A stretch of 64,000 bases of DNA from Chloroflexia bacterium (GTDB taxonomy: Bacteria; Chloroflexota; Chloroflexia; Thermomicrobiales; CADCWN01). Below are positions 20,832-38,508 of the stretch, piece by piece. The number at the start of each line of letters is the position of its first letter. Position 1 is the first letter of the stretch. The notes beneath the pieces were generated by a model. It was not told the DNA's origin and did not search any database. It saw only the letters and a program-made list of their open reading frames with translations. Both the position numbers and the translations under genes were made by a program. The DNA is taken from positions 1,834 through 65,833 of the forward strand of contig JBDHWF010000003.1 in assembly GCA_039810045.1 (NCBI GenBank), given 5' to 3'.

Positions 20832-20980
20832 TGGCCGATCCTCCCTGTTTGTCCCACTAGTAGGGCTCTGGTAGAATGTCGTCAATGTCCCGGGAATTCG
20901 GGGTTAGGGAGTAACGACAATAGTGATCTGCAACGCTCACGCTGGTGGCAGATCGATATGGGTACGAGGAGTCACCAGCG

Positions 20981-21955
20981 ATGCTCGATGCCGCAAACCG
21001 TAAGGGGACGAAGAACGGCGCAGTCGCAACCACATTAGATATTGCCACGCATACCACCCACGAAACACCTGATCTGATCGCTGTTGGCTGGCGACAAAGT
21101 GTTGCGGACTATATTGCGCTGACCAAGCCCAAGATTATCTCCTTGCTGCTGATTACCACGCTCGGCGCAATGATGATCGCAGGCGACGGCTTTCCATCTG
21201 TGTGGATCGTCTTGTGGACGTTACTGGGCGGCGCACTCGCCTCTGGTGGGGCTGGCGCAATCAACCACTTCATTGATCGTGACATTGACAAGAAAATGGG
21301 GCGCACCAAAGGTCGTCCGGTCGTCAATGGTCGCGTGCAACCGTGGCAGGCGCTCACCTTCGGGATCGCGCTAGAAGTCGCCTCGTTCACGCTCCTGACC
21401 CTGGCAGTCAATCTGCTCAGTGCCATTCTGGCGCTCGGTGGGTTCCTGTTCTATGTCGTGATCTACACCCTTTGGCTCAAGCGCACCACGCCGCACAATA
21501 TCGTGATTGGCGGGGCGGCTGGCGCATTTCCGCCCCTGGTTGGTTGGGCGGCCGCTACTGGTTCGCTCTCTCTCGGGGCATGGATTCTCTTTGCCATTAT
21601 CTTCTTCTGGACCCCACCCCATTTCTGGGCGCTGGCACTGCTGATTCGTGGCGACTATGAACGAGCGAACGTGCCAATGTTGCCAGTTGTGCGCGGGGTG
21701 GAGGAAACACGCAAGCAGATCCTGATTTACACCATCATCATGATCGCCACCACCCTACTCCTGGTAGCCGTTGGTACCAGTGGCTGGCTCTATCTGGTTC
21801 TCGCGCTTGGTTTGGGGGGCTGGTTCCTCTATGATGCCATTCTCCTCCTGCGTGAGCAGACCCAGCGCGCCGCCCGCCGCCTCTACCTGTACTCTTTACT
21901 CTACCTGGCACTGCTCTTTCTGGCGATGGTAATCGACCACGCCTTCATCGCCTAA
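20981..21955 (+). CDS. ctaB: Protoheme IX farnesyltransferase (heme O synthase)
   Basis: A UbiA-family protein with 'NHFIDRDIDKKMGRTKGRP' and 'FFWTPPHFWALA'. The ATG at 20981 has GAGGAG 9 nt upstream, and the ORF is open from GTG 20945. Confidence 0.88.
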   Translation: MLDAANRKGTKNGAVATTLDIATHTTHETPDLIAVGWRQSVADYIALTKPKIISLLLITTLGAMMIAGDGFPSVWIVLWTLLGGALASGGAGAINHFIDRDIDKKMGRTKGRPVVNGRVQPWQALTFGIALEVASFTLLTLAVNLLSAILALGGFLFYVVIYTLWLKRTTPHNIVIGGAAGAFPPLVGWAAATGSLSLGAWILFAIIFFWTPPHFWALALLIRGDYERANVPMLPVVRGVEETRKQILIYTIIMIATTLLLVAVGTSGWLYLVLALGLGGWFLYDAILLLREQTQRAARRLYLYSLLYLALLFLAMVIDHAFIA

Positions 21956-22060: not shown

Positions 22061-24349
22061 CTATGGTATCGGTGGTTCAATCGGTGGGATTGCATTGAAG
22101 TCGCTATAAGTACTCTCCATATAATGCCCCACGCTGAACATTCGCTGCCGCCGCACCAGATTATCATCGACCCCGATCCAGAACGTCATCCGGCTGCCAC
22201 TTGGCACATCAAGGAAACTAACCACCCAACACGGCGTACCAGCAATCGTTTCGCGCCCCAATAACGTCACTTCATTGGAGATACTGGCATTATCGAAGAT
22301 CGGCCAGCGATAGCCCGCAGGTTCCGGCCACACACTTTGCACCCAATTCCCACCCGCTGGGCGATCATACCGCTGCTTCCCGACCACGATTGTTTCGCTA
22401 CCAGCCTCTGAGCGCAGGTGCATGCGGTTTGGCGCGACCCACTGGTAATCCGTCGTAATGGGCGCACCGCTACCAGTGATCGTCTGATGTTCGCGCAAAC
22501 CAGTGAGTTGATTCATCGCCAGATCTGATTGTGCCAGTAACGAACGCGCACCACCCGTTGGAAGATCCAGGTTAAACACCGCGCGGTCAGTTCCTCCACC
22601 ACGCGGTGTAACCAACGCTTCGAGTTGCCAATGCCCCGGTTTACCAAGTTCCCCCAACCCCGTATAGCGACCATCCCGCGCTACCAATGGCACCTCTTGC
22701 GGAACCGCCCCATTTGTAGCGGTGAGCCGCAACGTCACAGCAGCATCAGTGAGGCTACCCCCAGCAGAATCTTGCAACGTCACATTCAGCACGGCTGGGC
22801 CAGTGGTCGTTGGTCCAATTGTCAGCGTTACCAGGGTTGGCCCCGCGTTCATTGCCAGCGTCACACTATCAGCAATAGTGGTGTTGGCAGGCGCACTGGC
22901 TGGCGCATCAGCGCTGACGACAGTACGAGCGGGTGGTAATGCCGTCAACAAGCCAACGACCAGCAATACCACCATCCCTATCGTCATTTCACCCCAGAGG
23001 GTCTGCCATAAACGCTGTATTGTCTGCGCCGTCGGCGCATTCGTCTCCCGCACTAGTCGTGGCAGAATCCAGAAGCGATTCATTGCGGCGAACCCCAGCA
23101 ACGGCACCAGGAGGAGGAGTTTCACCAGCAGCGTTCCACCATAGAGGCTTTGCCCCAACGCCAGTGGGCCATCAACGTGGACCCAGGTTTGGTAAAAGCC
23201 AGTCACGATAAGCAGTTGAATGGCAACAAGGGCCAGCGCCGAAAAACGCAAAATGATCCGCAGCAGCGTCTTGAACTGTGCTGTCACTGGTAATGCCCGA
23301 ATCATCCGCGGCAGAACCAGGGCGAGTATCAGCACCCCACCAAGCCAAGCTGACGAGGCCACAAGATGAACCCAATCGACCAGAATTGACAGCAGGATTG
23401 GGTCGGTCGTGGCCGCATGGCCGCTGATACTCGTTACGAGGGCATAGGCCAACCCCGCGATCAATAGCAATAACCAGGCGCGCTGCCCGCTGAGTGAGGC
23501 AATCGGCTCCTCGTCGGCAGCGCGTAGCTCCAACTCAGCACTGAGAATGGGCAAGGTCAGGGCTGGCGCAATCAGAAGGGCTAATCGACTCAGCCAGAGC
23601 GTGCCAAAGCGCCCGGTCAAGGCCCCAAGCAGATTCCCTGGCTGGAGAAACTCGCTGCCACCACCAAAGGCGCTGGCATAGGCGGCACTGATCAACAGGC
23701 AGAGCTGACCAAGGACAACAAGGCCAAATGCCAGCCAGATCCAGCGCACAATCGTTGGTTCAAAAAGGGTGAGGAAGTCATCATAACGCGACCGCTGCCG
23801 CGCTGGCGTGAACAGCAGCAGGCTGAGCCGGAAGGCCAGCGGCCCCAGCCAGAGACTCAGCCCCAGGAGAATTAATCCCCGGGCCAGCGCCTGGAGTAGC
23901 AGGGGTGGGGTCAAACCCGTTGGTTCAGTTTCGGCTGTGCCTAAGAGCAAATCTGCCGGAGCTACCCCCACCCCAAACCGAAACTCTCCAGTGACTGGAT
24001 GGGTATCTGCTGATACCAGCGCATAACGCACGGTATAGACTCCAGTTGAGAGTTCAGGCAGAGAAACCGCCACCGAGAGCGGATCATTGGGGGCAGCGTG
24101 GGCATCGCGCCGATCCACGCGCCGCCCGCCAGTGTCAGTTACGGCGATCTTATCGGCGCGAACCTCCACCCGCTCATTAAATGTCAGGCGCACCTCGCCA
24201 ACCGTTGCCGCCACCACAGTACCAGCCGCAGGTTGGGTCCGTTGCAAAAAGGCGTGGGCAGAAACAAGCGTTGGTGTCAACAGCACACCAGCGGCAAGCA
24301 CCAGGCCAAGCAGAAACCCCAGCACCCACTGTAAATGCCGAATATTCAA
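22061..24349 (-). CDS. CopC-CopD fusion copper transport/resistance protein with extra C-terminal extracytoplasmic domains (YcnJ-like)
   Basis: After a signal peptide comes 'HAFLQRTQPAAG...YALVSADTHPVTGEF' (CopC), then about 8 TM helices (CopD). A beta-rich 'GRYTGLGELGKPGHWQLEALV' module (YtkA/FixH-like) follows, plus about 170 further residues. Confidence 0.75.
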   Translation of the reverse strand: MNIRHLQWVLGFLLGLVLAAGVLLTPTLVSAHAFLQRTQPAAGTVVAATVGEVRLTFNERVEVRADKIAVTDTGGRRVDRRDAHAAPNDPLSVAVSLPELSTGVYTVRYALVSADTHPVTGEFRFGVGVAPADLLLGTAETEPTGLTPPLLLQALARGLILLGLSLWLGPLAFRLSLLLFTPARQRSRYDDFLTLFEPTIVRWIWLAFGLVVLGQLCLLISAAYASAFGGGSEFLQPGNLLGALTGRFGTLWLSRLALLIAPALTLPILSAELELRAADEEPIASLSGQRAWLLLLIAGLAYALVTSISGHAATTDPILLSILVDWVHLVASSAWLGGVLILALVLPRMIRALPVTAQFKTLLRIILRFSALALVAIQLLIVTGFYQTWVHVDGPLALGQSLYGGTLLVKLLLLVPLLGFAAMNRFWILPRLVRETNAPTAQTIQRLWQTLWGEMTIGMVVLLVVGLLTALPPARTVVSADAPASAPANTTIADSVTLAMNAGPTLVTLTIGPTTTGPAVLNVTLQDSAGGSLTDAAVTLRLTATNGAVPQEVPLVARDGRYTGLGELGKPGHWQLEALVTPRGGGTDRAVFNLDLPTGGARSLLAQSDLAMNQLTGLREHQTITGSGAPITTDYQWVAPNRMHLRSEAGSETIVVGKQRYDRPAGGNWVQSVWPEPAGYRWPIFDNASISNEVTLLGRETIAGTPCWVVSFLDVPSGSRMTFWIGVDDNLVRRQRMFSVGHYMESTYSDFNAIPPIEPPIP

Positions 24350-24506: not shown

Positions 24507-25019
24507 ATGACGACACGAACAACCGCGAATGCACAAGCAAAGAACACCATCCACTCGTCAGAGAATGGGGATCGCGTCATTACGACCAATCGTCAGGCGC
24601 GGTTTGAGTATACGATCCTGGAATCAATGGAAGCAGGGATCGCGCTGACTGGTACCGAGATTAAATCGGTGCGTGGTGGTCACGCCAATATCCGCGATAG
24701 TTATGCGCGCATCGAAGCTGGAGAACTCTGGCTGATCAATATGCACATTGCACCCTACGATCAGGCCGGTAGCTACTATCAACACGACCCGATTCGCCCC
24801 AGGAAACTGTTGGTACACCGCCGCGAAATCGCCCGCCTCAAAGCGGAACTCGGGCAAAAGGGACTGACCTTAGTCCCCCTGCGCCTCTATCTCAAACGTG
24901 GCCGTGCAAAAGTAGAAATTGGGCTGGCACGCGGGAAGAAGCTCTATGATAAGCGCGATGCGCTGGCCGAGCGTGACGCCAAACGTGATATTGAGCGCAG
25001 CCTCCGCAATCGCGAGTAG
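24507..25019 (+). CDS. smpB: SsrA-binding protein
   Basis: 'NRQARFEYTILESMEAGIALTGTEIKSVR' and 'LVPLRLYLKRGRAKVEIGLARGKK' are present. The gene lies directly upstream of the tmRNA gene. Confidence 0.93.
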   Translation: MTTRTTANAQAKNTIHSSENGDRVITTNRQARFEYTILESMEAGIALTGTEIKSVRGGHANIRDSYARIEAGELWLINMHIAPYDQAGSYYQHDPIRPRKLLVHRREIARLKAELGQKGLTLVPLRLYLKRGRAKVEIGLARGKKLYDKRDALAERDAKRDIERSLRNRE

Positions 25020-25081: not shown

Positions 25082-25431
25082 GGGGATGTCTGGTTTCGAC
25101 AGGGACGTAGGCGAGGGAATTGCAGGCCGAGGCGCCCGGGTTCCTCGTAAAAACGGGCAATGCCATAACTGGCAACACCGAATACGCTCTGGCTGCCTAG
25201 GTAGCCACGTCCGCGCAGTCCCCACCCCAACGGGATTGTAGTCGGGCGTCACAAAGTTGGGGTGCTGCATTGCCGACTGCGGGCTGAGCAATGCCTAAGA
25301 CCAGCCCACTAGCGCACTAGAGAGGCTGTCGAGAGTCGCTCGGTGAGCAAAAACTAAAATCTCGACTATGTCTGTAGGATATTCCCCGTTGAACTTTCTG
25401 GACGGGGGTTCGACTCCCCCCATCTCCACCA
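25082..25431 (+). ncRNA. ssrA: tmRNA (transfer-messenger RNA)
   Basis: The 5' GGGGAUG pairs with the 3' CAUCUCC, including the G3:U wobble, followed by A-CCA. The T-arm is GGGGGUUCGACUCCCCC. The internal tag ORF ends ...AAC ACC GAA UAC GCU CUG GCU GCC UAG (..NTEYALAA*, 25162/25171-25200); the resume codon is uncertain (GCC or GGC). Confidence 0.95.
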
Positions 25432-25493: not shown

Positions 25494-26014
25494 GATCGCT
25501 TGCCTGACCGCCGCCACTTTGCACTCTCCCCAGATAGTTTTGCAAAGAAAACGTCTCCTATTCTAGCCAAGAAACACCAAAAGTACTACAGACAATAGTC
25601 TTAATAATGGATACGATTGTCTAGAATGATCACGCCCTTTTGTATGACGCCCCTGGGTAACTAGAGGGGTACAGGGGTCGGCCCAAAGGTATTCAATATC
25701 TCGGCACAACCTGCTCAGCACTTCTGCATTGCGATTGCCTACCTCTGCTTGTTCCGTGAGAATTGTGCGCCGTAGCATGACACGGAACGCCGCTGCATCA
25801 ACTGATGCAGAACAGGAATATTCGCCTTGTCGATCACATCGCAGATCGACAAGAAAGGAGGGGGGAGCAGATAGATTCGATAGTCCTGAACCGAAATAGG
25901 AGTTTTGGGTCTTTGCATCATGGTCTGACGCCTTGTACAGTTCCTAGTAGGGTTAGCACAAAGCTGTGCATGAGTGACCAGCATCATGGTCGATCACAGA
26001 AGAAGGAGTATGCA

Positions 26015-26215
26015 ATGAACCTGACTGCGATTGAGATTGTTGTTCGGCGTATTTTCAGCGATGCTGAGTTCCGCGCACGAGCGCTGGCAAATCCAACAAC
26101 GGCGCTTGCTGAATATCAGCTTGCTGCTGCTGAACAGCAAGCATTGACGAAGCTGTGCCTACGCATGGCTGATGGGCAGAACGCGGTTGTCCCGAACTTT
26201 TACTGGTGGCTCTAG
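26015..26215 (+). CDS. 66-aa putative RiPP/pheromone precursor peptide (ComX-like: helical leader plus C-terminal ...NFYWWL)
   Basis: A strong SD, AAGGAG at 26003-26008, lies 6 nt before ATG 26015. The sequence is MNLTAIEIVVRRIFSDAEFRARALANPTTALAEYQLAAAEQQALTKLCLRMADGQNAVVPNFYWWL. The N-terminal 50 aa resemble helical leader peptides (DxxFRxxxxxxPxxALxEY). It lies immediately upstream of a prenyl-synthetase-fold gene. Confidence 0.6.
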   Translation: MNLTAIEIVVRRIFSDAEFRARALANPTTALAEYQLAAAEQQALTKLCLRMADGQNAVVPNFYWWL

Positions 26216-26290
26216 GTCGGGCGCGATCAACAGATACGGCGTGTAGCTACCTAGCAGGAAGCACCAGCGAACCTTGAGGAGTTAGGCGGC

Positions 26291-27190
26291 GTGCCCGATA
26301 CAGAACGGTTCGCTATTGTCAGGCAGCTACTCGAAGAGGCAGTGGAGCGCACGCCGCTCCCCGCCTCTTCTCAGCCGTTTCTCCGTATTCCCCTACAGCA
26401 GCCAGGAAAACTTCTCGGCGGTGCAGAACAACCACTTTGGCCAGCCACCGTCTTGGCCGTTTGTGCCGCAAGTGGTGCCGATCAGCGGCTCGGCAGTAAA
26501 GTTGCGGCGGCAGTCGAACTCTTTATGGCCAGTCTCGATATTCTCGATGAGCTTGAAGATGGTGATCGGTCACCGCTTGCGGAAACAGTTGGCCCCGCAC
26601 GTGCCCTCAATATTTCCACGATGCTTCTCTTTCTGGCCCAAAGCTTGCTTCAGAGTTTACACGAAGATGGTTTACCAGCAGAACGAGTTCTACAACTGAC
26701 CAAAACGCTTACTACGTTTGGCATCGAAGCAACTGTTGGACAAGATCGCGATTTACAAAGTGCCAATGCCGAAGCTCTTTCGTATGACGAAGCCCTGACG
26801 ATTGCCCAGATGAAAGCGGGCGCATTAGTCGCGTGTGCTTGTACGATCAGTGCCCTGCTTGCCACCGATGACCCATATCTGCTCAAACTCTATGGTGACT
26901 GGGGCAGACATTACGGCACCGCCGCGCAACTGGCGAATGATTTACATGACGCAACAAATGCCAACAAGAGTGATCTGGCCCAACAAAAAGGAACACTGCC
27001 ACTCCTCTACGAGCGCACGACGAATGACGGGGCTGTATCCCCGCCCGCCGTAGCAACAAGTGGCGCACTTCATTTTACCTGGGTAGTGCTAGAAATGGAA
27101 CGGCAACAGTGTGCCGAGCTTGCGACCATGCTGACAGCACACGGACAGGCGGCAAGGCATTTACAAACCTTACCTGGGGCAGTTGAGTGA
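26291..27190 (+). CDS. Polyprenyl-synthetase-fold protein with degenerate Asp-rich motifs (ComQ-like putative peptide prenyltransferase)
   Basis: 299 aa; GTG start with GAGGAG 9 nt upstream. The family landmarks 'GQDRDL', 'KAGAL' and 'KSDLAQQKGTLPLL' are present. However, the first Asp-rich motif is 'LDILDELEDGD' and the second is 'AQLANDLHD' (NDxxD) instead of DDxxD. Confidence 0.65.
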   Translation: MPDTERFAIVRQLLEEAVERTPLPASSQPFLRIPLQQPGKLLGGAEQPLWPATVLAVCAASGADQRLGSKVAAAVELFMASLDILDELEDGDRSPLAETVGPARALNISTMLLFLAQSLLQSLHEDGLPAERVLQLTKTLTTFGIEATVGQDRDLQSANAEALSYDEALTIAQMKAGALVACACTISALLATDDPYLLKLYGDWGRHYGTAAQLANDLHDATNANKSDLAQQKGTLPLLYERTTNDGAVSPPAVATSGALHFTWVVLEMERQQCAELATMLTAHGQAARHLQTLPGAVE

Positions 27191-30100
27191 TCACGACGAG
27201 CCAACCACCTCATCGATCAACACTCCACCCCGCCAGACCATTTCGGCTGGCATTATTCATCCTGATCCCAATCTTCATTGCCTGTCTCATTGTTGCCCAG
27301 CATGATGCAAAGCGTGCGCCTACTCTGGGGATAACGGTCACGCAAACCGAGCTAGGTGGCCCCTGGCTCGTCAGTAACGTGTCCTTTGGGAGCAGAGCCA
27401 ACTATCTGGGCATTGAGCCTGGGAATCAGATAGTACGCATTGACGGTAATGCGGTACAACGGGATCAGGCACCAGATCCTGTACTGATTCAGCAAGCGAC
27501 CCAACTGGTTATTACGAATGCCGATGGTTCAAAAACACGCACCTTCGATCTGGCTGGATTACAGTCAGGACCATTGAATCTAACCCCCTATCTGGTGATG
27601 AGCACCATCTTCTTCACTGTGGGGTTTATTACGCTATTGTTTGGTCAAGGGGCAGCACCGCGTGCGCTAGCCCTCCTCACCATGAGTGGGGCACTTGAAG
27701 CAGTCGCCATCCCCCTGAGCTTACGGGCAACAAACTGGGCGATTATTGCGAATGGGGTCTGTGTTCCCATCTTTATTGGTAGCTTCGCCTATCTCTTTCT
27801 TGTATTCCCGCGTCGCCGTCTGTTGCACGTCGGAAAGAAGCGCTTTCCACCAGAGTTAATCCTGCTGCCGATCATTCCCACCTTCATTACATATATGTTC
27901 TCTATCGCGACAAGTCATGCCGCAGTTATTATGGTTGGCCGAGTACTGGGCTACCCCTACTTCCTCGCTTGCTTTATCGGGGGGATTCTGGCCCTGATCC
28001 TCAGTTGGCGACAAGCACGCCCAGGGCGTGAAAAGACCCAACTCCGTACAGTAACGCTGGCAAGTATCGCCGCAATCACGCCATTTCTCTTGATCAACTT
28101 CTTCCCTCAGATCACCTTTGGCAATACCTTCCTCTCCGCCGACTACACGATCTTGCCTATGGCCTTAATTCCCCTCGCGTTCGGCTACGCCATCTTGCGT
28201 TATCAACTGATGAATATGCACCTCTATCTGCGGCGTGGGGTTGGCTATTCGATTCTTGGGGTTGGCATTACGGGAGTCTACACCTTAGGGCTGGCGATTG
28301 CCTCCATTACTATTCGTAACCAAACGGCCAGTAGTTTGCTCATCACGGCAATCATGATGACTATCGTCGTGCTGCTCGGCGACCATCTCCGTACAAAAAT
28401 CCAACACCATGTTGATCATCTCTTTGACCGTAAGGGGTATGACTATCGCCGCCAATTACTTGAGTTTAGTCAGCAGATGAATACGATCCTTGATCCTGAT
28501 GAACTTGCCGAATCAACCGTTGGCCTGATCGAACAGACCATGAGTTCATACTATGTGCGGCTGTATATCTACGACCGCGCAACCAGCACCTTCCACCTTT
28601 GGGCGCATGCAGGGACGCCCGTACCAAGCACCGAGCAAACACTGCCCCCTGAACACCCCACCAGTATGAAGATGCGCAACGCTGGCTGGGAAATTGTGCA
28701 ACATCTGGAAGTACAAGCTGATCAAGATGTTCTACTTGTACCACTGACCAATAAAGGCCAACCAGTCGCTATGCTTGTCCTGGGCGCAAAGCGATCAGAA
28801 CTGCCATATTCAAGCGAAGACCTTGTCTTGCTCAGTACTGTCGCCAGCCAACTGGCGATCTCGACGGAAAACGCCCAACTGTATGGGCGAATGCGCGATC
28901 TCTACCTCTCTGGGATTCGCACACTCGCAGCAACGGTTGATGCCAAAGATTCCTATACCCACGGTCATTCCGAGCGGGTCGCGGGGTATGCCCGCGCCCT
29001 GGCGATCGCGCTGAATTTGCCACAAATCGAAGTCGAAACCATTGAATTAGCGGGGTTATTGCACGATATTGGCAAAATTGGTATTCCTGATGCGGTACTC
29101 CAAAAACCTGGAAAGCTCGCCCCAGATGAACGGGCATTGATCGAACAGCACACCGAAATTGGGGCCCGGATCCTCGCTGATAATCCTGCGCTCCAGGCCC
29201 TTGTTCCGCTTGTACGGCATCATCACGAACGCTGGGACGGCAAAGGATATCCTGATCAGCTTCGTGGTGAAGCGATTCCCCTGGGGGCAGCAATTATCTG
29301 CGTGGCCGACACATTCGACACAATGACGACCAACCGCCCATATCGTCAGGCACCAGGATATGAACAAGCCTACCTGGAAATCCTGCGCCAGCGTGGGCAG
29401 CAATTTTCTCCTCGGGTGGTCGAGGCATTTATTCGGGTCGACTTTTCTCAGGGCAACTGCTCGACAGCAAACCAAAAAACCACTGCGCTACAGTCGCGGA
29501 TGGCCCTGGCGGAACAAGCTACTGCTACCAACAACCGCGCAATGCGCATTGTCTATCAAATTGCCCAACTGCTGAGTACCGCCAAAGAGTTAGATGTGTT
29601 CTTACAACGGGTGATCGAACTCTTACAAAATGAACTTGCGACCAATACTGTTGACTTCTTCATTATCGATGAAGAAACACAAACGCTCTACAATCGCCCC
29701 AGTACGCAAAGTAGCTTAGGCCAAATACAGCTTCCACTCGGCCAAGGTCTGGTAGGCTGGGTTGCTCAGCACCAGACGGCTGTCTGTATTGATGATATTC
29801 GCACTGATGATCGCGCAGTGATTGCGAACGGTTGGGATGGCCGAGCAGAACTCGCTGTGCCTCTGATTAGCAGTGGGAAGACGATTGGCGTACTGAATGT
29901 TGAGAGTACGCGCGTGGCCGCATTCACCGATGAGGACACCAAACTCCTGACCATCATTGCGGGACAACTGGCCCAGGTTATTGAAGTGACACAATTACAT
30001 CTGGACGCCCGTAAGGCCGCAGGCCTCGATAGCCTCACCAAGATTGCCAATCATCGGCAATTTTACAACCGTCTGGAAATGGCAATCGCGGCAACCCAAC

Positions 30101-30564
30101 AGCACCACAGTGCCCTGGCCCTCGCCATTATCGATGTTGATAACCTGAAATATATCAACGATACCTTTGGTCATTTAGCAGGTGATTCTGTTCTCTATAC
30201 GCTGGCTCAACACCTTGAAGCCCACGCCCAGGCTGAGGAATTTGTCGCGCGCTACGGTGGTGATGAGTTTGCAATCATCTTCCCCAACACCACTGATACC
30301 CAAGCAAAAGCACGAATCGAGGCACTCAGGGTCTACCTGCAAGAAGCGGCAACGCTCACAATCGACAATCAACAATTACCCCTCCCCGAACTCTCGGTAG
30401 GCGTTGCTGCTTTTGATCCAGAAACGATGACCCTGAGTGCGCTGATCAACGCTGCCGACAAAAAGATGTATGAACAGAAACGCGCCCACCGCAAGCACCG
30501 ACAACGCCCAACTCCGCCAGCAAGCCCCTTGGCAATTACTACGCCAATCGCCTATGATCGATAA
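27187..30564 (+). CDS. Polytopic membrane receptor: TM, PDZ-like loop, multi-TM, GAF, HD-GYP, GAF, GGDEF (c-di-GMP turnover)
   Basis: 1125 aa with a GTGA overlap with the upstream gene. aa 20-40 form a TM helix. aa ~60-125 'GIEPGNQIVRIDGNAV' are PDZ-like. aa ~130-400 carry about 9 TM helices ending in 'AILRYQLMNMHLYLRR'. The HD-GYP domain has 'HGHSERV', 'LLHDIGK' and 'HHERWDGKGYP' (aa ~575-750). The GGDEF domain has 'RYGGDEFAIIF' (aa ~945-1100). GAF-like modules flank the HD-GYP domain. Confidence 0.85.
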   Translation: MITTSQPPHRSTLHPARPFRLALFILIPIFIACLIVAQHDAKRAPTLGITVTQTELGGPWLVSNVSFGSRANYLGIEPGNQIVRIDGNAVQRDQAPDPVLIQQATQLVITNADGSKTRTFDLAGLQSGPLNLTPYLVMSTIFFTVGFITLLFGQGAAPRALALLTMSGALEAVAIPLSLRATNWAIIANGVCVPIFIGSFAYLFLVFPRRRLLHVGKKRFPPELILLPIIPTFITYMFSIATSHAAVIMVGRVLGYPYFLACFIGGILALILSWRQARPGREKTQLRTVTLASIAAITPFLLINFFPQITFGNTFLSADYTILPMALIPLAFGYAILRYQLMNMHLYLRRGVGYSILGVGITGVYTLGLAIASITIRNQTASSLLITAIMMTIVVLLGDHLRTKIQHHVDHLFDRKGYDYRRQLLEFSQQMNTILDPDELAESTVGLIEQTMSSYYVRLYIYDRATSTFHLWAHAGTPVPSTEQTLPPEHPTSMKMRNAGWEIVQHLEVQADQDVLLVPLTNKGQPVAMLVLGAKRSELPYSSEDLVLLSTVASQLAISTENAQLYGRMRDLYLSGIRTLAATVDAKDSYTHGHSERVAGYARALAIALNLPQIEVETIELAGLLHDIGKIGIPDAVLQKPGKLAPDERALIEQHTEIGARILADNPALQALVPLVRHHHERWDGKGYPDQLRGEAIPLGAAIICVADTFDTMTTNRPYRQAPGYEQAYLEILRQRGQQFSPRVVEAFIRVDFSQGNCSTANQKTTALQSRMALAEQATATNNRAMRIVYQIAQLLSTAKELDVFLQRVIELLQNELATNTVDFFIIDEETQTLYNRPSTQSSLGQIQLPLGQGLVGWVAQHQTAVCIDDIRTDDRAVIANGWDGRAELAVPLISSGKTIGVLNVESTRVAAFTDEDTKLLTIIAGQLAQVIEVTQLHLDARKAAGLDSLTKIANHRQFYNRLEMAIAATQQHHSALALAIIDVDNLKYINDTFGHLAGDSVLYTLAQHLEAHAQAEEFVARYGGDEFAIIFPNTTDTQAKARIEALRVYLQEAATLTIDNQQLPLPELSVGVAAFDPETMTLSALINAADKKMYEQKRAHRKHRQRPTPPASPLAITTPIAYDR

Positions 30565-31569: not shown

Positions 31570-33318
31570 ATGAGTGTCCCATTTCGCCTTCGCGTCAGTA
31601 GCGGACCAAATGCCGGAGAGAGCTTCATCCTCACCGACAATGGGGCAACCATTGGGCGGCAAGATGGCAACACTATCGTTCTCGACGATAGTCGCTTATC
31701 GCGCCAACACGCCCGCATTGATCTCGGCCCTGGTGGGCTCACTTTAACCGATCTTGGCTCCGCTAATGGTACCCTGGTCAATGGGCAGCGAGTCAGTGGC
31801 ACCCGAATCTTGCAACGCGGCGACCAGATTCAGCTTGGGGAGACGACGCTGATCCTTGAAGGAGGGGCACCGGCGAACAATCGTCTCGCCACGGTGGTAC
31901 CAAAGCCCGAAAATATCGTTACCACCCCTATCTCGGCGAATGCTGCTCGCTTAGTACAGCAAGTGGGTGGGCAAATCTACCCATTGAACCAGCCCGAAAT
32001 CGTTATTGGGCGTGAGGTAGGCGCGGAAATCGCCCTTGATGATTCCCAGATATCGCGTCGCCACGCCCGCCTGACGATAACGGGGAATACCGTCACCATC
32101 GCTGATCTTGGCTCAGCAAACGGTACGTTCGTCAACGGCAGGAAGATCGCTGGCCCAACTTCATTACAAGAAGGCGATCGGATCCGTATTGGTACCCACG
32201 ATTTTCGGATCGAGGGTCTGGCGCCCCCTGCCACGGCACCGCAACTAGCAGATGCGAACGATGCCACAGTCGCAGGGATCGCGCCTTTCCCTGCCGCTAC
32301 ACCGCTCAGGCCACTCCCGCCAGCAGGCACTGCCCCCTTACCGCCGCTAGGCAACGCGCCGGGGCCACCAGCCTTTGGGGCTAACCAACCGTCATTAGCG
32401 CCTGGACAGCCCTGGAATCCTCCAGCATCGCCATACGGCTCGGTGGGGATGCCCCCACCATCACCCGCAAAACGCCGTTCAACCTCACCGATCCTGATCG
32501 GCGGTTGTGTAGTTCTCTTCCTGTTACTCTGTATCGGCGGCGGCATTGGCGGGGCAGTCGTCATCCGTAACCGTAACAACGACGCCACCCCAACCGTGGT
32601 GACGAATAGCACTGCTGTCCCAGGCGGCGGTGGCAGTAACCCCGCCCCATCACCACCAACCCCTGGCGGTGCGCTACCGCCCACCACTCAGCCAACGGCG
32701 ACGCTAGTTGCCCTCTTGCCGCCAACCACGCCCACAGCACCGGCAACGGCAACGTCAGCGCCGCTTCCCACATTGGCGGCACCGCCACCAACAACTGCGC
32801 CAACTCGCCGCCCGACCAATCAGGTCGCGCCAACGGTGGCGGCTACCCGTCCACCAGCGAACGGCAACACCACGATTACAGTTGATGCAGTGGGGTTGAC
32901 GTTCATCTTACCTACTGGTTGGACCCAGGAACGGGATGAGGCGGGCCAGGCCACCTTTCTGGCCCCAGACCAACGCGCGCAAATTACCGTACGGTGGAGC
33001 CAACAGGCCCCTGCGGGGCTGACCGCCCAACGGTTGATTCAGGATGAATTACAGCGAACTGCTAATGAAGATAGTAGCTTCGTCCCCAGCAACACCCAAA
33101 TCGGCGCGCTCACCTTTGGCGGGCACCCCGGCTATGGTTCGGAACCATATACCTACAATCTGCAAAGCGGTACGCGCCTGACTGAAGCTGACCGTGCTGT
33201 CGTACTCAGCGGGCGCGCCCAATACTTCTTTGGATTTACTGCCATTGCCACAGATTTTGATCGTTATCGATCGATCTTCGATAGTATCATCAATACTGTC
33301 GTCATTACTGGCCCTTAA
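31570..33318 (+). CDS. Double-FHA-domain membrane protein with extracytoplasmic C-terminal domain
   Basis: It has two FHA modules ('IGRQDGNTIVLDDSRLSRQHARI...GSANGTLVNG' and 'IGREVGAEIALDDSQISRRHARL...GSANGTFVNG'). A Pro-rich linker, the TM 'ILIGGCVVLFLLLCIGGGIGGAVVI', a PT-rich spacer and a ~150-aa globular C-terminus follow. Confidence 0.85.
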   Translation: MSVPFRLRVSSGPNAGESFILTDNGATIGRQDGNTIVLDDSRLSRQHARIDLGPGGLTLTDLGSANGTLVNGQRVSGTRILQRGDQIQLGETTLILEGGAPANNRLATVVPKPENIVTTPISANAARLVQQVGGQIYPLNQPEIVIGREVGAEIALDDSQISRRHARLTITGNTVTIADLGSANGTFVNGRKIAGPTSLQEGDRIRIGTHDFRIEGLAPPATAPQLADANDATVAGIAPFPAATPLRPLPPAGTAPLPPLGNAPGPPAFGANQPSLAPGQPWNPPASPYGSVGMPPPSPAKRRSTSPILIGGCVVLFLLLCIGGGIGGAVVIRNRNNDATPTVVTNSTAVPGGGGSNPAPSPPTPGGALPPTTQPTATLVALLPPTTPTAPATATSAPLPTLAAPPPTTAPTRRPTNQVAPTVAATRPPANGNTTITVDAVGLTFILPTGWTQERDEAGQATFLAPDQRAQITVRWSQQAPAGLTAQRLIQDELQRTANEDSSFVPSNTQIGALTFGGHPGYGSEPYTYNLQSGTRLTEADRAVVLSGRAQYFFGFTAIATDFDRYRSIFDSIINTVVITGP

Positions 33319-33335
33319 TAGATCAGGATTATTTT

Positions 33336-35255
33336 ATGAGTGATAGTACTACCACAGCAGATTCATTTGATAATCGTAACCAGATTGGCGCAGGGCAGGA
33401 AGAAACTGCGCACGCCCGCGGCGGCCTCACGGCAACAGCCTTTGGGCTCAGTGATATTGGCTGCCAGCGCTCGGTCAATCAGGATACCCTCGGTAATCGG
33501 CTCAGTCAGTTTCCCACCCAACTCCATGATCGGGGATTACTCTATGCCATTGCTGATGGAATGGGCGGCCATGCCCACGGCGAGATCGCCAGTGCCCTCG
33601 CGATCGACGAACTGTTCACCCGCTTCTATCAGATCGATCCCAGTCTCCCGCCACAAACAGCCCTGACCCAGGTGATGCAAGAACTGAATGCTGCGGTGCA
33701 TCAGGCGGGGCGGGATGCGGGCGGCGGATCGATGGGTACCACGCTGACGATAGTGCTCTTACGCGATAACATCCTCTATGTTGGCAACATTGGCGACAGT
33801 CGCACCTATCTAATTCGGGGCGGGAAGATCAAGCAACTGAGCCAGGATCATTCGCTGATCGGTGAGCAAATACGCAGCGGTACCCTGACCGAAGCCGACG
33901 CCCGTACCAGTGCAATTCGTAATGTGATTACCCGGGCGGTTGGCTATCGAGAAACTGTCGAACCAGAAACGTTTGCGTTTACCGTCCACCCCGGCGACAT
34001 CCTCTTACTCTGCTCGGATGGCTTGCATGGCCTGGTCGAAAATGAGGAACTGGCGCAAATCCTGAGTACACAAACGCTATCAGACGCCACAACCAACTTG
34101 ATCGCCCTGGCGCGTGAGCGTGGCGGGCCAGATAATATTACCGCACTCGTAGTGCGTGTCGATCAGCTTGGTGCAGCAGGCACGGCCAACGCCACACAGC
34201 AGATTACTGCCAGTGATAGTGACGCTGCTGATGACGCCACCAAGCCAATGCCAATGATCGCGCCAGATCGTACCGAAGAGATCCTCCTCCCAGCAACCGA
34301 AAATGAAGAGCAAGCAGCAACAACACTCCCAATGATCACCACACCAAAAGCTGCCCCCAATGCTCCAAGGCCAACAGTAGCCCCAGCGTCAATGCCCGCA
34401 CCAGCCCCAACCGTCGCCGATCTCGCCCGTCCAGCAGCCCGCCCGCCGCTCTGGCTGTTTATCGTGATCCCATTACTGTTAATCGGGCTGATTGCGGCGG
34501 GAGTGTTGCTCTTTACGCGAAACCTAAACACGACACCAACGCCTCCAGCAGTTGTTACGGTAGTGGCTACAGCAACGGTAGCACCAGCACCCTCGGCCAC
34601 GGCTGCTGTCGCCACTGCACCAGTTGTCGCTGCTGGCAGTATTGCGCCGACCGCACAACCAACTGCCACCTTACCCCCCAAAACACCACCAGCCAGCGCC
34701 CCAGCACAATCTAGCGGCGGCAGTAACCCCGCCGCCCCGATAGTACCGCGTCCCAATACTCCCTCAGCGATAGCAGCCGGGAATAGTGGGGCAACGCAAC
34801 GGATCAAGGTAAGCGGCACCGTGCGCTTTGCCGAAACACTAGCGATTCCCGCAGGATTCCCAAATGATTGGGCAGTATTGCTCTATGCACAACGTGACTT
34901 TCAGCAGCAACAGCAGGCGGCCCCAATCAAAGCACAATCCGCACTAACAGTCCTCCCCTTTCGCGAAGAGTACGGGTTTGTCCTTGATCTTGAGCTTGCC
35001 ACTGGGAATCAACAAGGAGAGCTATTCACCATTCAGCTACAGGATCTGGAAAATGACCAAATCGCCGTACTTGATCCCGGTGAGATTCGCATCGATCGCA
35101 CTGGTCGCCCAATTACTGTGCGCGTAACCAGTATTACTGAGCAACCAGAACCTCGGCCATCAGGCAACGTATCGCCGCGCACGCCAGCGATCTTCCTCAC
35201 AGACGACAAGATTCAGCGCGCTGTAGCAGTATTCCTACAGCAAGTCAGGCGCTAA
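33336..35255 (+). CDS. PP2C-family Ser/Thr phosphatase, membrane anchored
   Basis: 'YAIADGMGGHAHGEIAS', 'LLLCSDGLHG' and 'GGPDNITALVV' are present. The TM 'LWLFIVIPLLLIGLIAAGVLLF' and an extracytoplasmic A/P/T-rich region plus domain follow. Confidence 0.88.
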   Translation: MSDSTTTADSFDNRNQIGAGQEETAHARGGLTATAFGLSDIGCQRSVNQDTLGNRLSQFPTQLHDRGLLYAIADGMGGHAHGEIASALAIDELFTRFYQIDPSLPPQTALTQVMQELNAAVHQAGRDAGGGSMGTTLTIVLLRDNILYVGNIGDSRTYLIRGGKIKQLSQDHSLIGEQIRSGTLTEADARTSAIRNVITRAVGYRETVEPETFAFTVHPGDILLLCSDGLHGLVENEELAQILSTQTLSDATTNLIALARERGGPDNITALVVRVDQLGAAGTANATQQITASDSDAADDATKPMPMIAPDRTEEILLPATENEEQAATTLPMITTPKAAPNAPRPTVAPASMPAPAPTVADLARPAARPPLWLFIVIPLLLIGLIAAGVLLFTRNLNTTPTPPAVVTVVATATVAPAPSATAAVATAPVVAAGSIAPTAQPTATLPPKTPPASAPAQSSGGSNPAAPIVPRPNTPSAIAAGNSGATQRIKVSGTVRFAETLAIPAGFPNDWAVLLYAQRDFQQQQQAAPIKAQSALTVLPFREEYGFVLDLELATGNQQGELFTIQLQDLENDQIAVLDPGEIRIDRTGRPITVRVTSITEQPEPRPSGNVSPRTPAIFLTDDKIQRAVAVFLQQVRR

Positions 35256-35284
35256 ACGACAGCAACATTCTGCATATTGAGGTC

Positions 35285-37564: not shown

Positions 37565-37698
37565 TATTCCAATTGCCAGAAGATCAGTATACTGAGAAAC
37601 TGATGCTACGCTTTAGACGTTCAGGTAGGCAGAAGTAGACACGGCGCATATCGCAGACAGCTTTGGAATAGCGAACGAAGGAAGGGGAGCGACAGACG

Positions 37699-38508
37699 AT
37701 GGATGCATTCTTGATTGTGCAGCGTGGCGAGGACATTGGACGAAGGTTTGATCTCGACAACAATCAACTTACTATTGGTCGGGGATCAGATAACGATCTC
37801 GTCTTAAATGATCCAATGGTTTCGCGTTATCATGCCGTCCTCAAACAACAGGGGAATCGTTACTCGCTGATCGACCTTGGTAGCTCCAACCCTGTGGTCA
37901 TCAATGATCAGCCACTGGAGCCAGGGACACCCCAACAACTGACGCACCGGGATGTGGTCTTCATTGGCAAAACGGTCTTCTCATTCCAAAATCGTGCCGC
38001 TGGCATCAGCCACGCCGCATCCGCGCAGCCAGAGAAACACGAAGCAACCCAGGTTATCAGCAATCGCGATCATGACCCGTCGACACCACTGCCAGCGTCG
38101 CGCAGCAGTGCAACGTCCAGCAACACCCCTGCTGCCAGTAGGGCTACGGCACCAATGGGCCAACAGGAGGCCGGAAGCACGAAGCCCGCCGTAGTATCAC
38201 CACCAGAACGCCCAGCCCAGGAAGCAGCAACGCAGATTATTGAACCTGCCGACAAAGGGGCGAAGGAGGAGGATAACGACAAGACACTGATTGGGAGCGG
38301 GGCAACGTCCGCCCCACCGCCGCCAGTCTTCGCCCCGCCTCCACCACCAACGGCAGTGAAGTTCGACGACGAAGAAACGAATGCCTCGATCAAGATGCCG
38401 CCACCGCCACCATTCGGCACACCATCTACCCTCGGGGATAAGCAACCGAATACCGCCGACAATGATGAGGATGGCGACCTGCCAACCCAGATCATTCCCC
38501 GCCGCTAA
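37699..38508 (+). CDS. FHA-domain protein with Pro-rich disordered tail
   Basis: 'IGRGSDNDLVLNDPMVSRYHAVL...GSSNPVVIND' is an FHA domain. The C-terminal 170 aa are low-complexity (PPPP runs). Confidence 0.8.
   Translation: MDAFLIVQRGEDIGRRFDLDNNQLTIGRGSDNDLVLNDPMVSRYHAVLKQQGNRYSLIDLGSSNPVVINDQPLEPGTPQQLTHRDVVFIGKTVFSFQNRAAGISHAASAQPEKHEATQVISNRDHDPSTPLPASRSSATSSNTPAASRATAPMGQQEAGSTKPAVVSPPERPAQEAATQIIEPADKGAKEEDNDKTLIGSGATSAPPPPVFAPPPPPTAVKFDDEETNASIKMPPPPPFGTPSTLGDKQPNTADNDEDGDLPTQIIPRR

Follow-up and report, generated by a model that had tools for sequence, protein, structure and literature searches.

A candidate ComQX-type prenylated-peptide signalling cassette with a c-di-GMP-type receptor in a Chloroflexia bacterium

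The window, that is, the whole stretch of 64,000 nucleotides analysed here (Chloroflexia bacterium, assembly GCA_039810045.1, contig JBDHWF010000003.1), contains three packed genes on the + strand, which we call X (precursor peptide), Q (enzyme) and R (receptor). Their coordinates and motifs, the GTGA overlap and the receptor domains were re-found as given in a preliminary description of this DNA. The features, in positions of the window, are:

26003..26008, + strand: Shine-Dalgarno sequence AAGGAG of the X gene, as read in the sequence, with 6 nt between it and the ATG (26015)
26015..26215, + strand: X, 66-aa precursor peptide, MNLTAIE...VVPNFYWWL, its first ~50 residues a putative NHLP-type leader, the rest a hypervariable core with the C-terminus YWWL
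26207..26209, + strand: codon of Trp65, second-last residue of X and predicted site of prenylation (Trp invariant in homologues, StheX precedent)
26291..27190, + strand: Q, 299 aa, predicted ComQ/StheQ-type (trans-IDS-like) tryptophan prenyltransferase (PF00348, model, residue fingerprint)
26537..26566, + strand: FARM-like motif D83-ILDELEDG-D92 of Q, conserved, corresponding to StheQ D82/D85/E86/D89/D91
26927..26950, + strand: Q213 and pseudo-SARM N216-D217-L-H-D220 of Q, conserved, corresponding to StheQ Q212/N215/D216/D219
27187..30564, + strand: R, 1125-aa receptor, whose GTG start overlaps the Q stop codon TGA (GTGA)
27319..27564, + strand: PDZ domain of R on the extracytoplasmic side, residues 45-126 (AlphaFold model; CtpA PDZ domain matched by Foldseek)
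27583..28428, + strand: TM2-TM10 helical bundle of R, residues 133-414 (hydropathy and model)
28492..28872, + strand: GAF domain 1 of R, residues 436-562 (GAF_3, PF13492, E 9e-17)
28927..29418, + strand: HD-GYP phosphodiesterase domain of R, residues 581-744 (HD_5/HD, PF13487, E 7e-38; LLHDIGK, HHERWDGKGYP)
29584..29985, + strand: GAF domain 2 of R, residues 800-933 (GAF_2, PF13185, E 1e-26)
30025..30495, + strand: GGDEF diguanylate cyclase domain of R, residues 947-1103 (PF00990, E 4e-40; DVDNLKYIND, RYGGDEF)

A program-made list of open reading frames extended the X frame upstream to 25805; we set the start at 26015 because all 27 homologous peptides begin at this M[NE]L position, and the Shine-Dalgarno sequence and the C-terminus VVPNFYWWL described earlier were re-read, the former at 26003-26008 and the latter at the end of 26015-26215. 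X matches Pfam Frankia_peptide (E 2e-6) and NCBIfam NF038399 of the Os1348 NHLP clan (E 5.8e-9), in both cases below the curated cut-off. Judged from its sequence, the leader is of the NHLP-clan RiPP type, as in PalX (PMC10853753); of the earlier likening of X to ComX, the type of system stood and the resemblance in sequence did not. Pairwise comparison of 27 distinct X homologues gives a mean identity of 62% for the leader and 25% for the core, and the penultimate Trp is invariant (27/27), which bears out the expectation of hypervariable C-termini that retain their Trp. As the residue preceding it varies and this Trp does not, W65 is probably the prenylation site, and not W64, the third residue from the C-terminus that had been proposed before. 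In the 69-aa peptide StheX, it is likewise the penultimate Trp, W68, that has been shown experimentally to be farnesylated (bioRxiv 10.64898/2026.08.29.745113).

The description of Q as a 299-aa polyprenyl-synthetase-fold protein with non-canonical motifs holds, as it matches Pfam PF00348 polyprenyl_synt (E 1.6e-15) and contains both LDILDELEDGD and AQLANDLHD. According to its AlphaFold model (pLDDT 93.3), Q has the IPPS fold, and Foldseek matches it to GGPPS and Ord1 structures with TM 0.77-0.84, GGPP synthases being the top matches. Across 32-45 homologues, full conservation is seen at D83, D86, D90, D92, Q213, N216 and D217, and near-full conservation at E87 and D220. In both the 45- and the 32-homologue set, an invariant Asn replaces the first SARM Asp, by which the SARM is changed to NDxxD while the FARM is retained. 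In StheQ, the exchange N215D abolishes 98% of the activity (bioRxiv 10.64898/2026.08.29.745113). The published functional residues of StheQ match Q at 12 of 13 positions, gap-free at a fixed offset of +1 over 185 residues, and by this fingerprint of published positions, which is not a full alignment, StheQ would belong to the clade of Q. The Pfam and NCBIfam matches of Q are to generic polyprenyl synthases only, with at most 67 bits against cut-offs of 275-600 for the NCBIfam equivalogs; several sources annotate Q homologues as GGPP synthase, and three are named ComQ by JGI. Most likely, Q attaches a lipid to the penultimate Trp of X, a Trp prenylation that is demonstrated for its relative StheQ and predicted for Q by analogy.

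The architecture given earlier for R, namely the GTGA overlap, one transmembrane helix, a PDZ-like loop, about nine further helices and GAF, HD-GYP, GAF and GGDEF domains, was recovered with Pfam, hydropathy and AlphaFold. Hydropathy places TM1 at residues 19-37 and nine further helices at 135-398; the loops rich in positive charge lie on the side of the cytoplasm, and the PDZ faces outward. The loop 45-126 adopts a PDZ fold in the AlphaFold model (pLDDT 87.5), is matched by Foldseek to the CtpA PDZ domain and keeps an LG[ILV] loop of the carboxylate-binding type. The PDZ is the most variable and fastest-evolving region of the sensor; PDZ_6 matches 10 of 12 homologous sensor modules, and the PDZ of R itself scores weakly against Pfam. 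For the TM2-TM10 bundle, Foldseek returned no significant match in the PDB. On the output side, all 16 loci of the window clade match HHE..G.GYP and 14 of them LLHD[IL]GK; where the match extends to the GGDEF domain (15 loci), RYGGDEF is always kept, and the DxD..ND metal-site pattern is matched in 13. The GGDEF domain of R has no RxxD I-site.

The order X-Q-R occurs in all 13 related loci with flanks sufficient for three genes (L001-L009, L018, L024, L027, L029), down to 39% Q identity, and loci with shorter flanks contain whatever part of the cassette fits. Nearly all of these loci are from Chloroflexota. As the same three genes recur in the same order in all sufficiently long related loci, their co-occurrence, which the preliminary description had put forward as a check, is beyond chance; next to the nearest polyprenyl synthase outside the Q family (E 1e-15), X and R are absent. 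No linked protease or exporter gene and no linked immunity, transporter or further tailoring gene was found in the flanks of the cassette loci, and the cassette is a minimal comQXP-like unit of peptide, enzyme and sensor.

The outputs attached to the sensor differ between clades. In a sister clade (L011-L017, L038), a homologous PDZ and TM sensor forms one protein with a NarL-type histidine kinase, followed by a LuxR/NarL-type response regulator, and this clade is a true ComQXPA analogue in the Chloroflexota. R and the kinase clade share the TM-bundle motifs LF.VFP, PF, LxPLxFGYAILRYQ and RRG. In a third group (L032), the homologous sensor is fused to GGDEF and then HD-GYP, an order swapped relative to R. 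The X-Q-sensor order spans all three output architectures, down to about 30% Q identity.

In Bacillus pherotypes, the enzyme, the peptide and the N-terminal half of the receptor co-diverge. A similar pattern is seen between the close relatives L024 and L027, whose DNA is 86-88% identical in the flanks, 49% in the X core, 63% in Q and 67% over R residues 1-275, but 85% over residues 276-430 and 87% in the cytoplasmic part of R. The divergent island (49-67%) hence runs from the X core through Q to about residue 275 of R, stopping inside R and not at a gene boundary, which by analogy would mirror the pherotype pattern. Fast evolution, as is general for extracellular and membrane domains, explains part of the contrast between sensor and output, but leaves the low identity seen in Q unaccounted for. 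The co-divergence of sensor and peptide fits a receptor-ligand pair.

From what was observed, namely the anatomy of the genes, their motifs and synteny, the domain swap and the co-divergence, we think it likely that the cassette signals by a prenylated peptide of the ComQX type and that its receptor acts directly on c-di-GMP. The central idea of the preliminary description, a ComX/ComQ/ComP-like cassette with HD-GYP and GGDEF in place of a kinase, is supported by the synteny, the kinase sister clade and the pherotype-like island. On this model, the 66-aa precursor X would consist of an NHLP-like leader that folds and a C-terminal core that stays flexible. Q would bind this leader together with a prenyl diphosphate (probably farnesyl or geranyl), held via FARM-bound Mg2+, and alkylate C3 of W65, probably with closure of a pyrroloindoline ring. 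The leader would then be removed and the short lipopeptide would presumably leave the cell, by factors encoded outside the cassette. Outside, the N-terminal module of R would read the peptide: the PDZ may grip the free W*-hydrophobic-COOH end, and the prenyl chain could enter the TM1-TM6 region. A signal passing via TM7-TM10 and the GAF domains would shift the balance of HD-GYP phosphodiesterase and GGDEF cyclase and change cellular c-di-GMP without a phosphorelay; any direction assigned to this change would be our conjecture.

Producer-side sensing of an antimicrobial peptide is familiar from nisin and NisK, and on this model prenylated X would mainly act as a bioactive lipopeptide, such as an antimicrobial or a surfactant, with R as a sensor for autoinduction or self-protection and not for cell counting. 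NHLP-type leaders are usually found on natural-product RiPPs, hypervariable cores are typical of bacteriocins too, and PalQ-type prenylation increases the antimicrobial activity of peptides (PMC13290415). The minimal comQXP-like unit, with no immunity, transporter or tailoring genes linked to it, speaks against this alternative, which we regard as unlikely; it overlaps with the signalling module, as the sensor-peptide co-divergence fits a receptor-ligand pair either way.

The PDZ domains of DegS and RseP read the exposed C-termini of misfolded envelope proteins, and R could similarly sense something else, X and Q being separate neighbours or mere modulators. The PDZ+10TM sensor family has 4091 representatives, with kinase, SpoIIE and cyclase among its many outputs, and presumably mostly lacks X and Q; as most members may respond to other stimuli, carrying the module does not by itself identify a peptide sensor. 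However, the gene order kept across three output architectures, the translational overlap of Q and R and the end of the island within R make another ligand quite improbable. That Q is an ordinary FPP or GGPP synthase beside an irrelevant small ORF, as its generic profile matches, the annotations and the top Foldseek hits would allow, is very hard to reconcile with the invariant Asn, the low equivalog scores, the conserved small ORF with its Trp and the fit to an experimentally characterised peptide prenyltransferase.

For the signalling module, a precedent on the output side is RpfR, the PAS-GGDEF-EAL receptor of BDSF, in which a quorum-sensing signal controls c-di-GMP turnover via the receptor itself, as proposed for R; in RpfC/RpfG (DSF), such control lies one step away, in the HD-GYP protein RpfG. 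Unlike X, the signals of both are fatty acids, and unlike R, RpfR is cytoplasmic; we know of no ribosomal peptide, prenyltransferase or PDZ and polytopic sensor in either. In ComQXPA of Bacillus subtilis, an IPPS-fold enzyme with FARM and pseudo-SARM prenylates a precursor of 55-73 aa on a Trp close to its C-terminus, and a polytopic receptor gene adjoins, which resembles Q, X and R (PMC5331326). The window cassette differs in lacking the kinase and ComA, in its gene order (X-Q-R instead of Q-X-P-A), in the NHLP-type leader and non-ComX-like sequence of X, in the outward-facing PDZ of R and in a Trp at -2 instead of -3 or -4. PalP/PalX/PalQ of Paenibacillus alvei likewise comprises three genes, for a sensor in the membrane, for a precursor of the NHLP type that conserves a Trp at its C-terminal end, and for a prenyltransferase of the isoprenoid-synthase fold that acts on C3 of Trp and produces a pyrroloindoline (PMC10853753, 2023). 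In contrast to the window, however, PalP is a histidine kinase, PalQ requires Trp as the very last residue and belongs to a remote lineage annotated as terpene synthase, whereas Q matches PF00348, and the host is a Firmicute. Also close to Q and X are StheQ and StheX of Sphaerobacter thermophilus, a member of the phylum to which the window belongs as well: StheQ is similar in length to Q, its FARM, Q212 and N215-D216-xx-D219 underlie the match described above, and StheX (~69 aa), like X, contains Cys and has Trp-Trp at -3 and -2, although the preprint places stheX downstream of stheQ and X lies upstream of Q. The reported identity of StheQ to ComQ is only 19%. The preprint covers enzyme and peptide only, states their biological role to be unknown and makes no mention of a receptor, c-di-GMP, PDZ or NHLP leader (bioRxiv 10.64898/2026.08.29.745113). 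Since this preprint of August 2026, a ComQ system outside the Firmicutes is no longer new, and the earlier remark that no such system was known to have been described no longer applies to the peptide and enzyme pairs, known from Paenibacillus and Sphaerobacter; it stands for the c-di-GMP receptor, which is apparently novel and, if our reading is true, replaces the usual kinase relay of a ComX-type pheromone system by direct second-messenger control.

The cassette consists of a precursor peptide gene (X), a gene for an enzyme of the ComQ/StheQ type (Q) and a gene for a putative receptor (R). The sequence confirmed all three genes at the positions that the preliminary description had assigned to them, including the GTGA overlap of the last two. 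The features that matter here are the following:

24507-25019, smpB, in the block directly upstream of the cassette
25082-25431, tmRNA gene, tag GNTEYALAA
26015-26215, forward strand, X, encoding the 66-residue peptide MNLTAIEIVVRRIFSDAEFRARALANPTTALAEYQLAAAEQQALTKLCLRMADGQNAVVPNFYWWL, with the Shine-Dalgarno sequence AAGGAG 6 nt ahead of the ATG
26207-26209, codon of Trp65, the predicted modified residue of X
26291-27190, Q, 299 residues, PF00348 match with E 1.6e-15
27187-30564, R, 1125 residues, GTG start within the GTGA that overlaps the Q stop codon

X adjoins Q, lying 75 nt upstream of it. A mechanically called ORF lengthens X by 70 codons (25805-26014), up to an in-frame ATG, and as this extension is common to no X homologue, it is not part of the X gene. 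The N-terminal two thirds of the peptide match the leader of the NHLP-clan RiPP model NF038399 of NCBIfam with an E-value of 5.8e-9 (35.9 bits, under the curated cut-off of 40). The Pfam match, Frankia_peptide (PF14407; E 2e-6, 28.3 bits, cut-off 48), is likewise below threshold, and the X homologue of the related locus L018 carries a precomputed PF14407 match. In a set of 27 distinct X peptides, collected from 38 loci via tblastn plus database matches, the leader consensus M[NE]LQxxExVVRRLFSDxEFR...LxKLC is well kept. It had been suggested to check whether the C-termini are hypervariable and nevertheless retain Trp, and this is indeed what the set displays: on average, two peptides share 62% identity over the leader versus 25% over the last ~16 residues, and the penultimate Trp, present in 27/27 peptides, is the sole invariant feature of the core. 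The final residue can be W, F, Y, L, A or R. Because the position ahead of the penultimate Trp is freely variable while the penultimate Trp itself is fixed, the comparison points to W65 and not to W64, which had been put forward as the modified residue and which we reject; the StheX peptide discussed below concurs. We also considered a regulatory RNA in the spacer that separates X from Q and dropped this idea, since the fold was no better than shuffled (z = -1.08), and an Rfam scan of the window returned the tmRNA only and no c-di-GMP riboswitch.

Hydropathy analysis of R indicates ten hydrophobic helices with positive-inside loops, which places residues 45-126 outside and everything past residue 400 inside. 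The AlphaFold model of residues 1-430 (pLDDT 87.5, pTM 0.83, 64-row alignment) shows TM1, then at 49-126 a domain of five strands and two helices, and finally nine long helices, and Pfam assigns GAF, HD-GYP (HD_5), GAF and GGDEF, in this order, to the cytoplasmic part. Hydropathy, model and Pfam thus agree with the architecture first read from the sequence, namely one TM helix, a PDZ-like loop, about nine more TM helices and the four cytoplasmic domains. The claim that c-di-GMP domains replace a histidine kinase also holds, as HD-GYP and GGDEF are present in R and HisKA and HATPase are absent. The catalytic signatures LLHDIGK, HHERWDGKGYP, DVDNLKYIND and RYGGDEF are intact, and an RxxD inhibitory site was looked for in the window R and is absent. 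Within the clade of loci to which the window belongs (the window clade), HHE..G.GYP is kept in 16/16 loci and the HD pattern is matched in 14/16, and GGDEF is kept in all 15 loci that reach this domain, 13 of which match the DxD pattern. Judged from these motifs, the output domains of R are likely to be catalytically competent. In L005, L008, L009, L019 and L020 the R frame is split or the gene is called short (819-1000 aa), which in these MAG loci could be due to assembly error or gene decay.

The loop domain of R was matched by Foldseek to the PDZ domain of the C-terminal processing protease CtpA with a probability of 1.0 over 85-90 columns, PDZ_6 matches 10/12 homologous sensor modules, and the hydrophobic-Gly-hydrophobic loop LG[ILV], which is of the carboxylate-binding type, is conserved in the sensor PDZ. 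A Foldseek search of the helical bundle against the PDB gave no significant match (best E 0.01, TM 0.25-0.37, GPCR-like noise). The PDZ is the most variable region of the sensor, with 24% identity between the window and the related locus L001; for the same pair, the TM helices are 53-63% and the cytoplasmic part is 66% identical. PDZ domains bind free C-termini, and as the peptide is constant only at its C-terminal Trp-hydrophobic end, we propose that the PDZ of R may grip this end of the X-derived peptide. A search of R 1-430 against 1.84 billion representatives (E 1e-3 or better) matched 4091 proteins, a large family without a name. Among 57 full-length representatives scanned for output domains, HATPase_c was found in 34, HD-GYP in 12, SpoIIE in 6, GGDEF in 5 and adenylate cyclase in 1, and only 2/57 match Pfam HisKA_7TM. 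The family size and the varied outputs mark the PDZ and ten TM helices as a general sensor chassis.

The preliminary description had suggested looking for peptide, enzyme and receptor together in relatives, and the order X-Q-R occurs in 13/13 window-clade loci with enough flank for three genes, persisting down to 39% Q identity. The carriers are Thermomicrobiales, Nitrolancea and 'Chloroflexia' MAGs. A sister clade (L011-L017 and L038), with Q proteins 28-38% identical to window Q, includes Nitrolancea hollandica and Ktedonobacterales, and here the order is X, Q, a ~790-aa protein and then a Response_reg-GerE regulator. The first 420 residues of the ~790-aa protein are homologous to R 1-430 (24% identity, E 1e-18), and the remainder is a NarL-type histidine kinase. 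With the same sensor fused to a kinase and accompanied by a NarL-type regulator, the sister clade is a genuine ComQXPA analogue. A third design is found in the high-GC locus L032 (1504-4998), where a homologue of the PDZ and TM sensor is followed by the swapped order GAF-GAF-GGDEF-HD-GYP; L034, also high-GC, has X, Q and the PDZ and TM sensor, within which the contig ends. The X peptides of these two loci end in ...HWWL or ...RIWF. The kinase-clade X peptides of L011, L013 and L015 have 77-82 aa and an internal conserved E-W-[WF], beyond which follows a Pro/acidic-rich tail of 9-17 residues, e.g. ...SAEWWVPPPQEPAS. This tail recalls ComXnatto, for which trimming of the C-terminus is required. 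L012 (JBDZVF010000530.1) is labelled a Pseudomonadota MAG, but in Q, kinase and regulator it hardly differs from Nitrolancea hollandica (L011, L013) and is therefore probably mis-binned.

As in the window, X-Q-R is closely preceded by smpB in L018 and L020, which suggests vertical inheritance of the cassette at this site. No leader-removal gene or peptidase-domain ABC exporter was found in the window or in L018-L020. A fourth conserved gene for a protease or exporter was considered and dropped, with SmpB/tmRNA upstream, CpXC/FHA downstream and neighbours that differ between lineages. Downstream in the window (31570-38508), co-directional genes encode a double-FHA protein, a PP2C phosphatase whose tail spans the membrane and is rich in Pro/Ala, a subtilase and a further FHA protein, a Ser/Thr-phosphorylation signalling set that likewise lies downstream of the cassette in L019. 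Further upstream are a gene for a UbiA-family prenyltransferase (20945-21955, forward strand) and one for a 762-aa CopC-CopD fusion with a FixH-like region (22061-24349, reverse strand); in other loci, neither shows linkage to the cassette.

The locus was compared segment by segment between L024 and L027, two relatives that stem from a single metagenome project.

DNA identity between L024 and L027
Flanks: 86-88%
X leader: 85%
X core: 49%
Q: 63%
R 1-275 (PDZ and TM1-6): 67%
R 276-430: 85%
R cytoplasmic part: 87%

At the protein level, Q is 57% and the output half of R 91% identical, and the divergent island ends within R. The pair L018 and L020 follows the same trend, co-divergence thus being seen in two locus pairs only. 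Such an island pattern is shown by the Bacillus comQ-comX-5'comP pherotypes. In the comparison of L024 with L027, indels are densest in the 580-nt spacer that separates tmRNA and X. On account of synteny, domain swap, co-divergence and PDZ variability, we regard it as rather probable that R is the receptor of the X signal. Alternatively, the lipopeptide could be a natural product whose sensor serves autoinduction; this alternative overlaps with the signalling reading and appears improbable to us. Slightly less probable still is that R senses something unrelated to X and Q. The PDZ and ten-TM module alone is indeed not diagnostic of peptide sensing, but the gene order is conserved across three output designs, Q and R overlap translationally, and the island breakpoint is intragenic, all of which speaks against an unrelated signal.

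The search of Q against the Pfam polyprenyl synthetase family, which had been recommended, gave the PF00348 match listed among the features. The AlphaFold model of Q (pLDDT 93.3, built on 45 homologues) has the all-alpha isoprenyl diphosphate synthase fold, with Foldseek TM-scores of 0.77-0.84 to GGPPS, FPPS and the indole prenyltransferase Ord1. The first Asp-rich motif (FARM) is retained as D86-E87-L-E-D90-G-D92, and the second (SARM) is replaced by a pseudo-SARM of the form NDxxx, N216-D217-L-H-D220. Conservation was scored in two sets of homologues (n=45 and n=32), in which D83, D86, D90, D92, D154, K175, Q213, N216 and D217 are invariant and E87 and D220 nearly so. Chain-elongating synthases need the first SARM aspartate, and the invariance of N216 means that this residue is always Asn in the Q family. 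That Q is an ordinary FPP/GGPP synthase is therefore very hard to believe given this Asn, the low scores of the named FPP/GGPP synthase models of NCBIfam (each at most 67 bits, with cut-offs of 275-600) and the adjoining peptide with its conserved Trp. The Q homologues P0054, P0060 and P0063 carry the JGI name 'ComQ'. The closest polyprenyl synthase that falls outside the family comes from cyanobacteria (E 1e-15), and no peptide or sensor adjoins it; the cyanobacterial proteins P0068-P0073 were dropped as family members, P0069 having neither X nor a sensor as neighbour. We think that X is very probably prenylated by Q.

The proposed mechanism would begin with binding of the X leader and a prenyl diphosphate by Q, the latter at the FARM-Mg2+ site, upon which Q would alkylate C3 of W65. 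The leader would then be removed and the lipopeptide exported by factors not linked to the cassette. The outward-facing PDZ and TM1-6 of R would recognize the cognate lipopeptide, and TM7-10 and the GAF domains would pass the change on to HD-GYP and GGDEF. This whole chain, from prenylation of X via recognition by R to a rise or a fall of c-di-GMP, is probable in our view. There is a wider reading, in which Chloroflexota possess a family of pherotype-diversifying lipopeptide pheromone systems whose sensor, an extracellular PDZ and a 10-TM bundle, reads the prenylated peptide C-terminus and is plugged either into a kinase relay or directly into a bifunctional c-di-GMP enzyme. The window R would then be the first receptor for peptide quorum sensing to act as c-di-GMP synthase and phosphodiesterase itself; for this wider reading the balance is even.

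Peptide quorum sensing and c-di-GMP signalling are usually linked by transcription or phosphorelays. Fatty-acid quorum signals are known to act directly on c-di-GMP, as with RpfR and RpfC/RpfG, and we know of no such direct coupling for a ribosomal peptide. If the proposed chain is true, synthesis and breakdown of c-di-GMP would be under the control of a lipopeptide signal through one receptor, a short circuit in a little-studied phylum among whose members are nitrifiers as well as formers of biofilms or granules. An outward PDZ that grips a free C-terminus offers a concrete hypothesis for the recognition of prenylated ComX-type peptides, the L024 and L027 types are natural specificity variants usable in swaps, and synthetic biology could use the cassette as a compact three-gene part that puts c-di-GMP under lipopeptide control. 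The preliminary description regarded the system as undescribed. This does not apply to the Q/X pair, which is already known in kind, but full-text literature searches found no paper in which a c-di-GMP receptor is connected with a peptide that is prenylated or of the ComX type. The novelty thus lies in the c-di-GMP receptor, the PDZ-10TM sensor and the pherotype-like island, which are new observations inside a known framework. A 2026 review on peptide prenyltransferases does not mention c-di-GMP or Chloroflexi, an HD-GYP census does not mention PDZ or a peptide, and a 2022 survey noted, about Chloroflexi, only KEGG ComP-ComA pairs.

The nearest published system is StheQ/StheX from Sphaerobacter thermophilus, a member of the Chloroflexi (bioRxiv 10.64898/2026.08.29.745113, Aug 2026). 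StheX has 69 aa with an ordered leader and Trp-Trp at -3/-2 and is farnesylated on the penultimate Trp; crystal structures of StheQ contain a single Mg2+, which is bound at the FARM (D85, D89), the pseudo-SARM (N215, D216, D219) being free of it, and the N215D variant loses 98% of the activity (bioRxiv 10.64898/2026.08.29.745113). Thirteen residues are named functional, namely D82, D85, E86, D89, D91, D153, A167, K174, Q212, N215, D216, D219 and T267 (bioRxiv 10.64898/2026.08.29.745113). Window Q has 12/13 of them at one offset of +1, gapless over 185 residues, which is a residue fingerprint and not an alignment. Window X, with 66 aa, the conserved KLC and the C-terminus WWL, fits the description of StheX (~69 aa, a Cys, Trp-Trp at -3/-2). 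Resting on this fingerprint, window Q/X may be likened to the StheQ/StheX clade, and the penultimate Trp is the predicted site in window X too (W65). The StheQ preprint does not mention GGDEF, histidine kinase or NHLP (bioRxiv 10.64898/2026.08.29.745113), and the window cassette supplies the receptor context absent from it. ComQ, ComP and PalQ are likened to the window proteins by their descriptions, not by sequence. In Paenibacillus alvei, PalP is a histidine kinase, PalX an NHLP-type precursor with Trp at its end and PalQ an enzyme of the isoprenoid-synthase fold that prenylates the indole C3 to give a pyrroloindoline (PMC10853753). In ComX, the modified Trp is mostly the third or fourth residue from the end, and ComQ(RO-E-2) takes the second to fourth (PMC5331326). 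Compared with ComQXPA, window R lacks HisKA and HATPase, no regulator adjoins it, and the gene order is X-Q-R instead of comQ-comX-comP-comA; a feature that the two systems share is a pherotype-type polymorphism that, in the two locus pairs, is limited to the enzyme, the peptide and the N-terminal half of the receptor.
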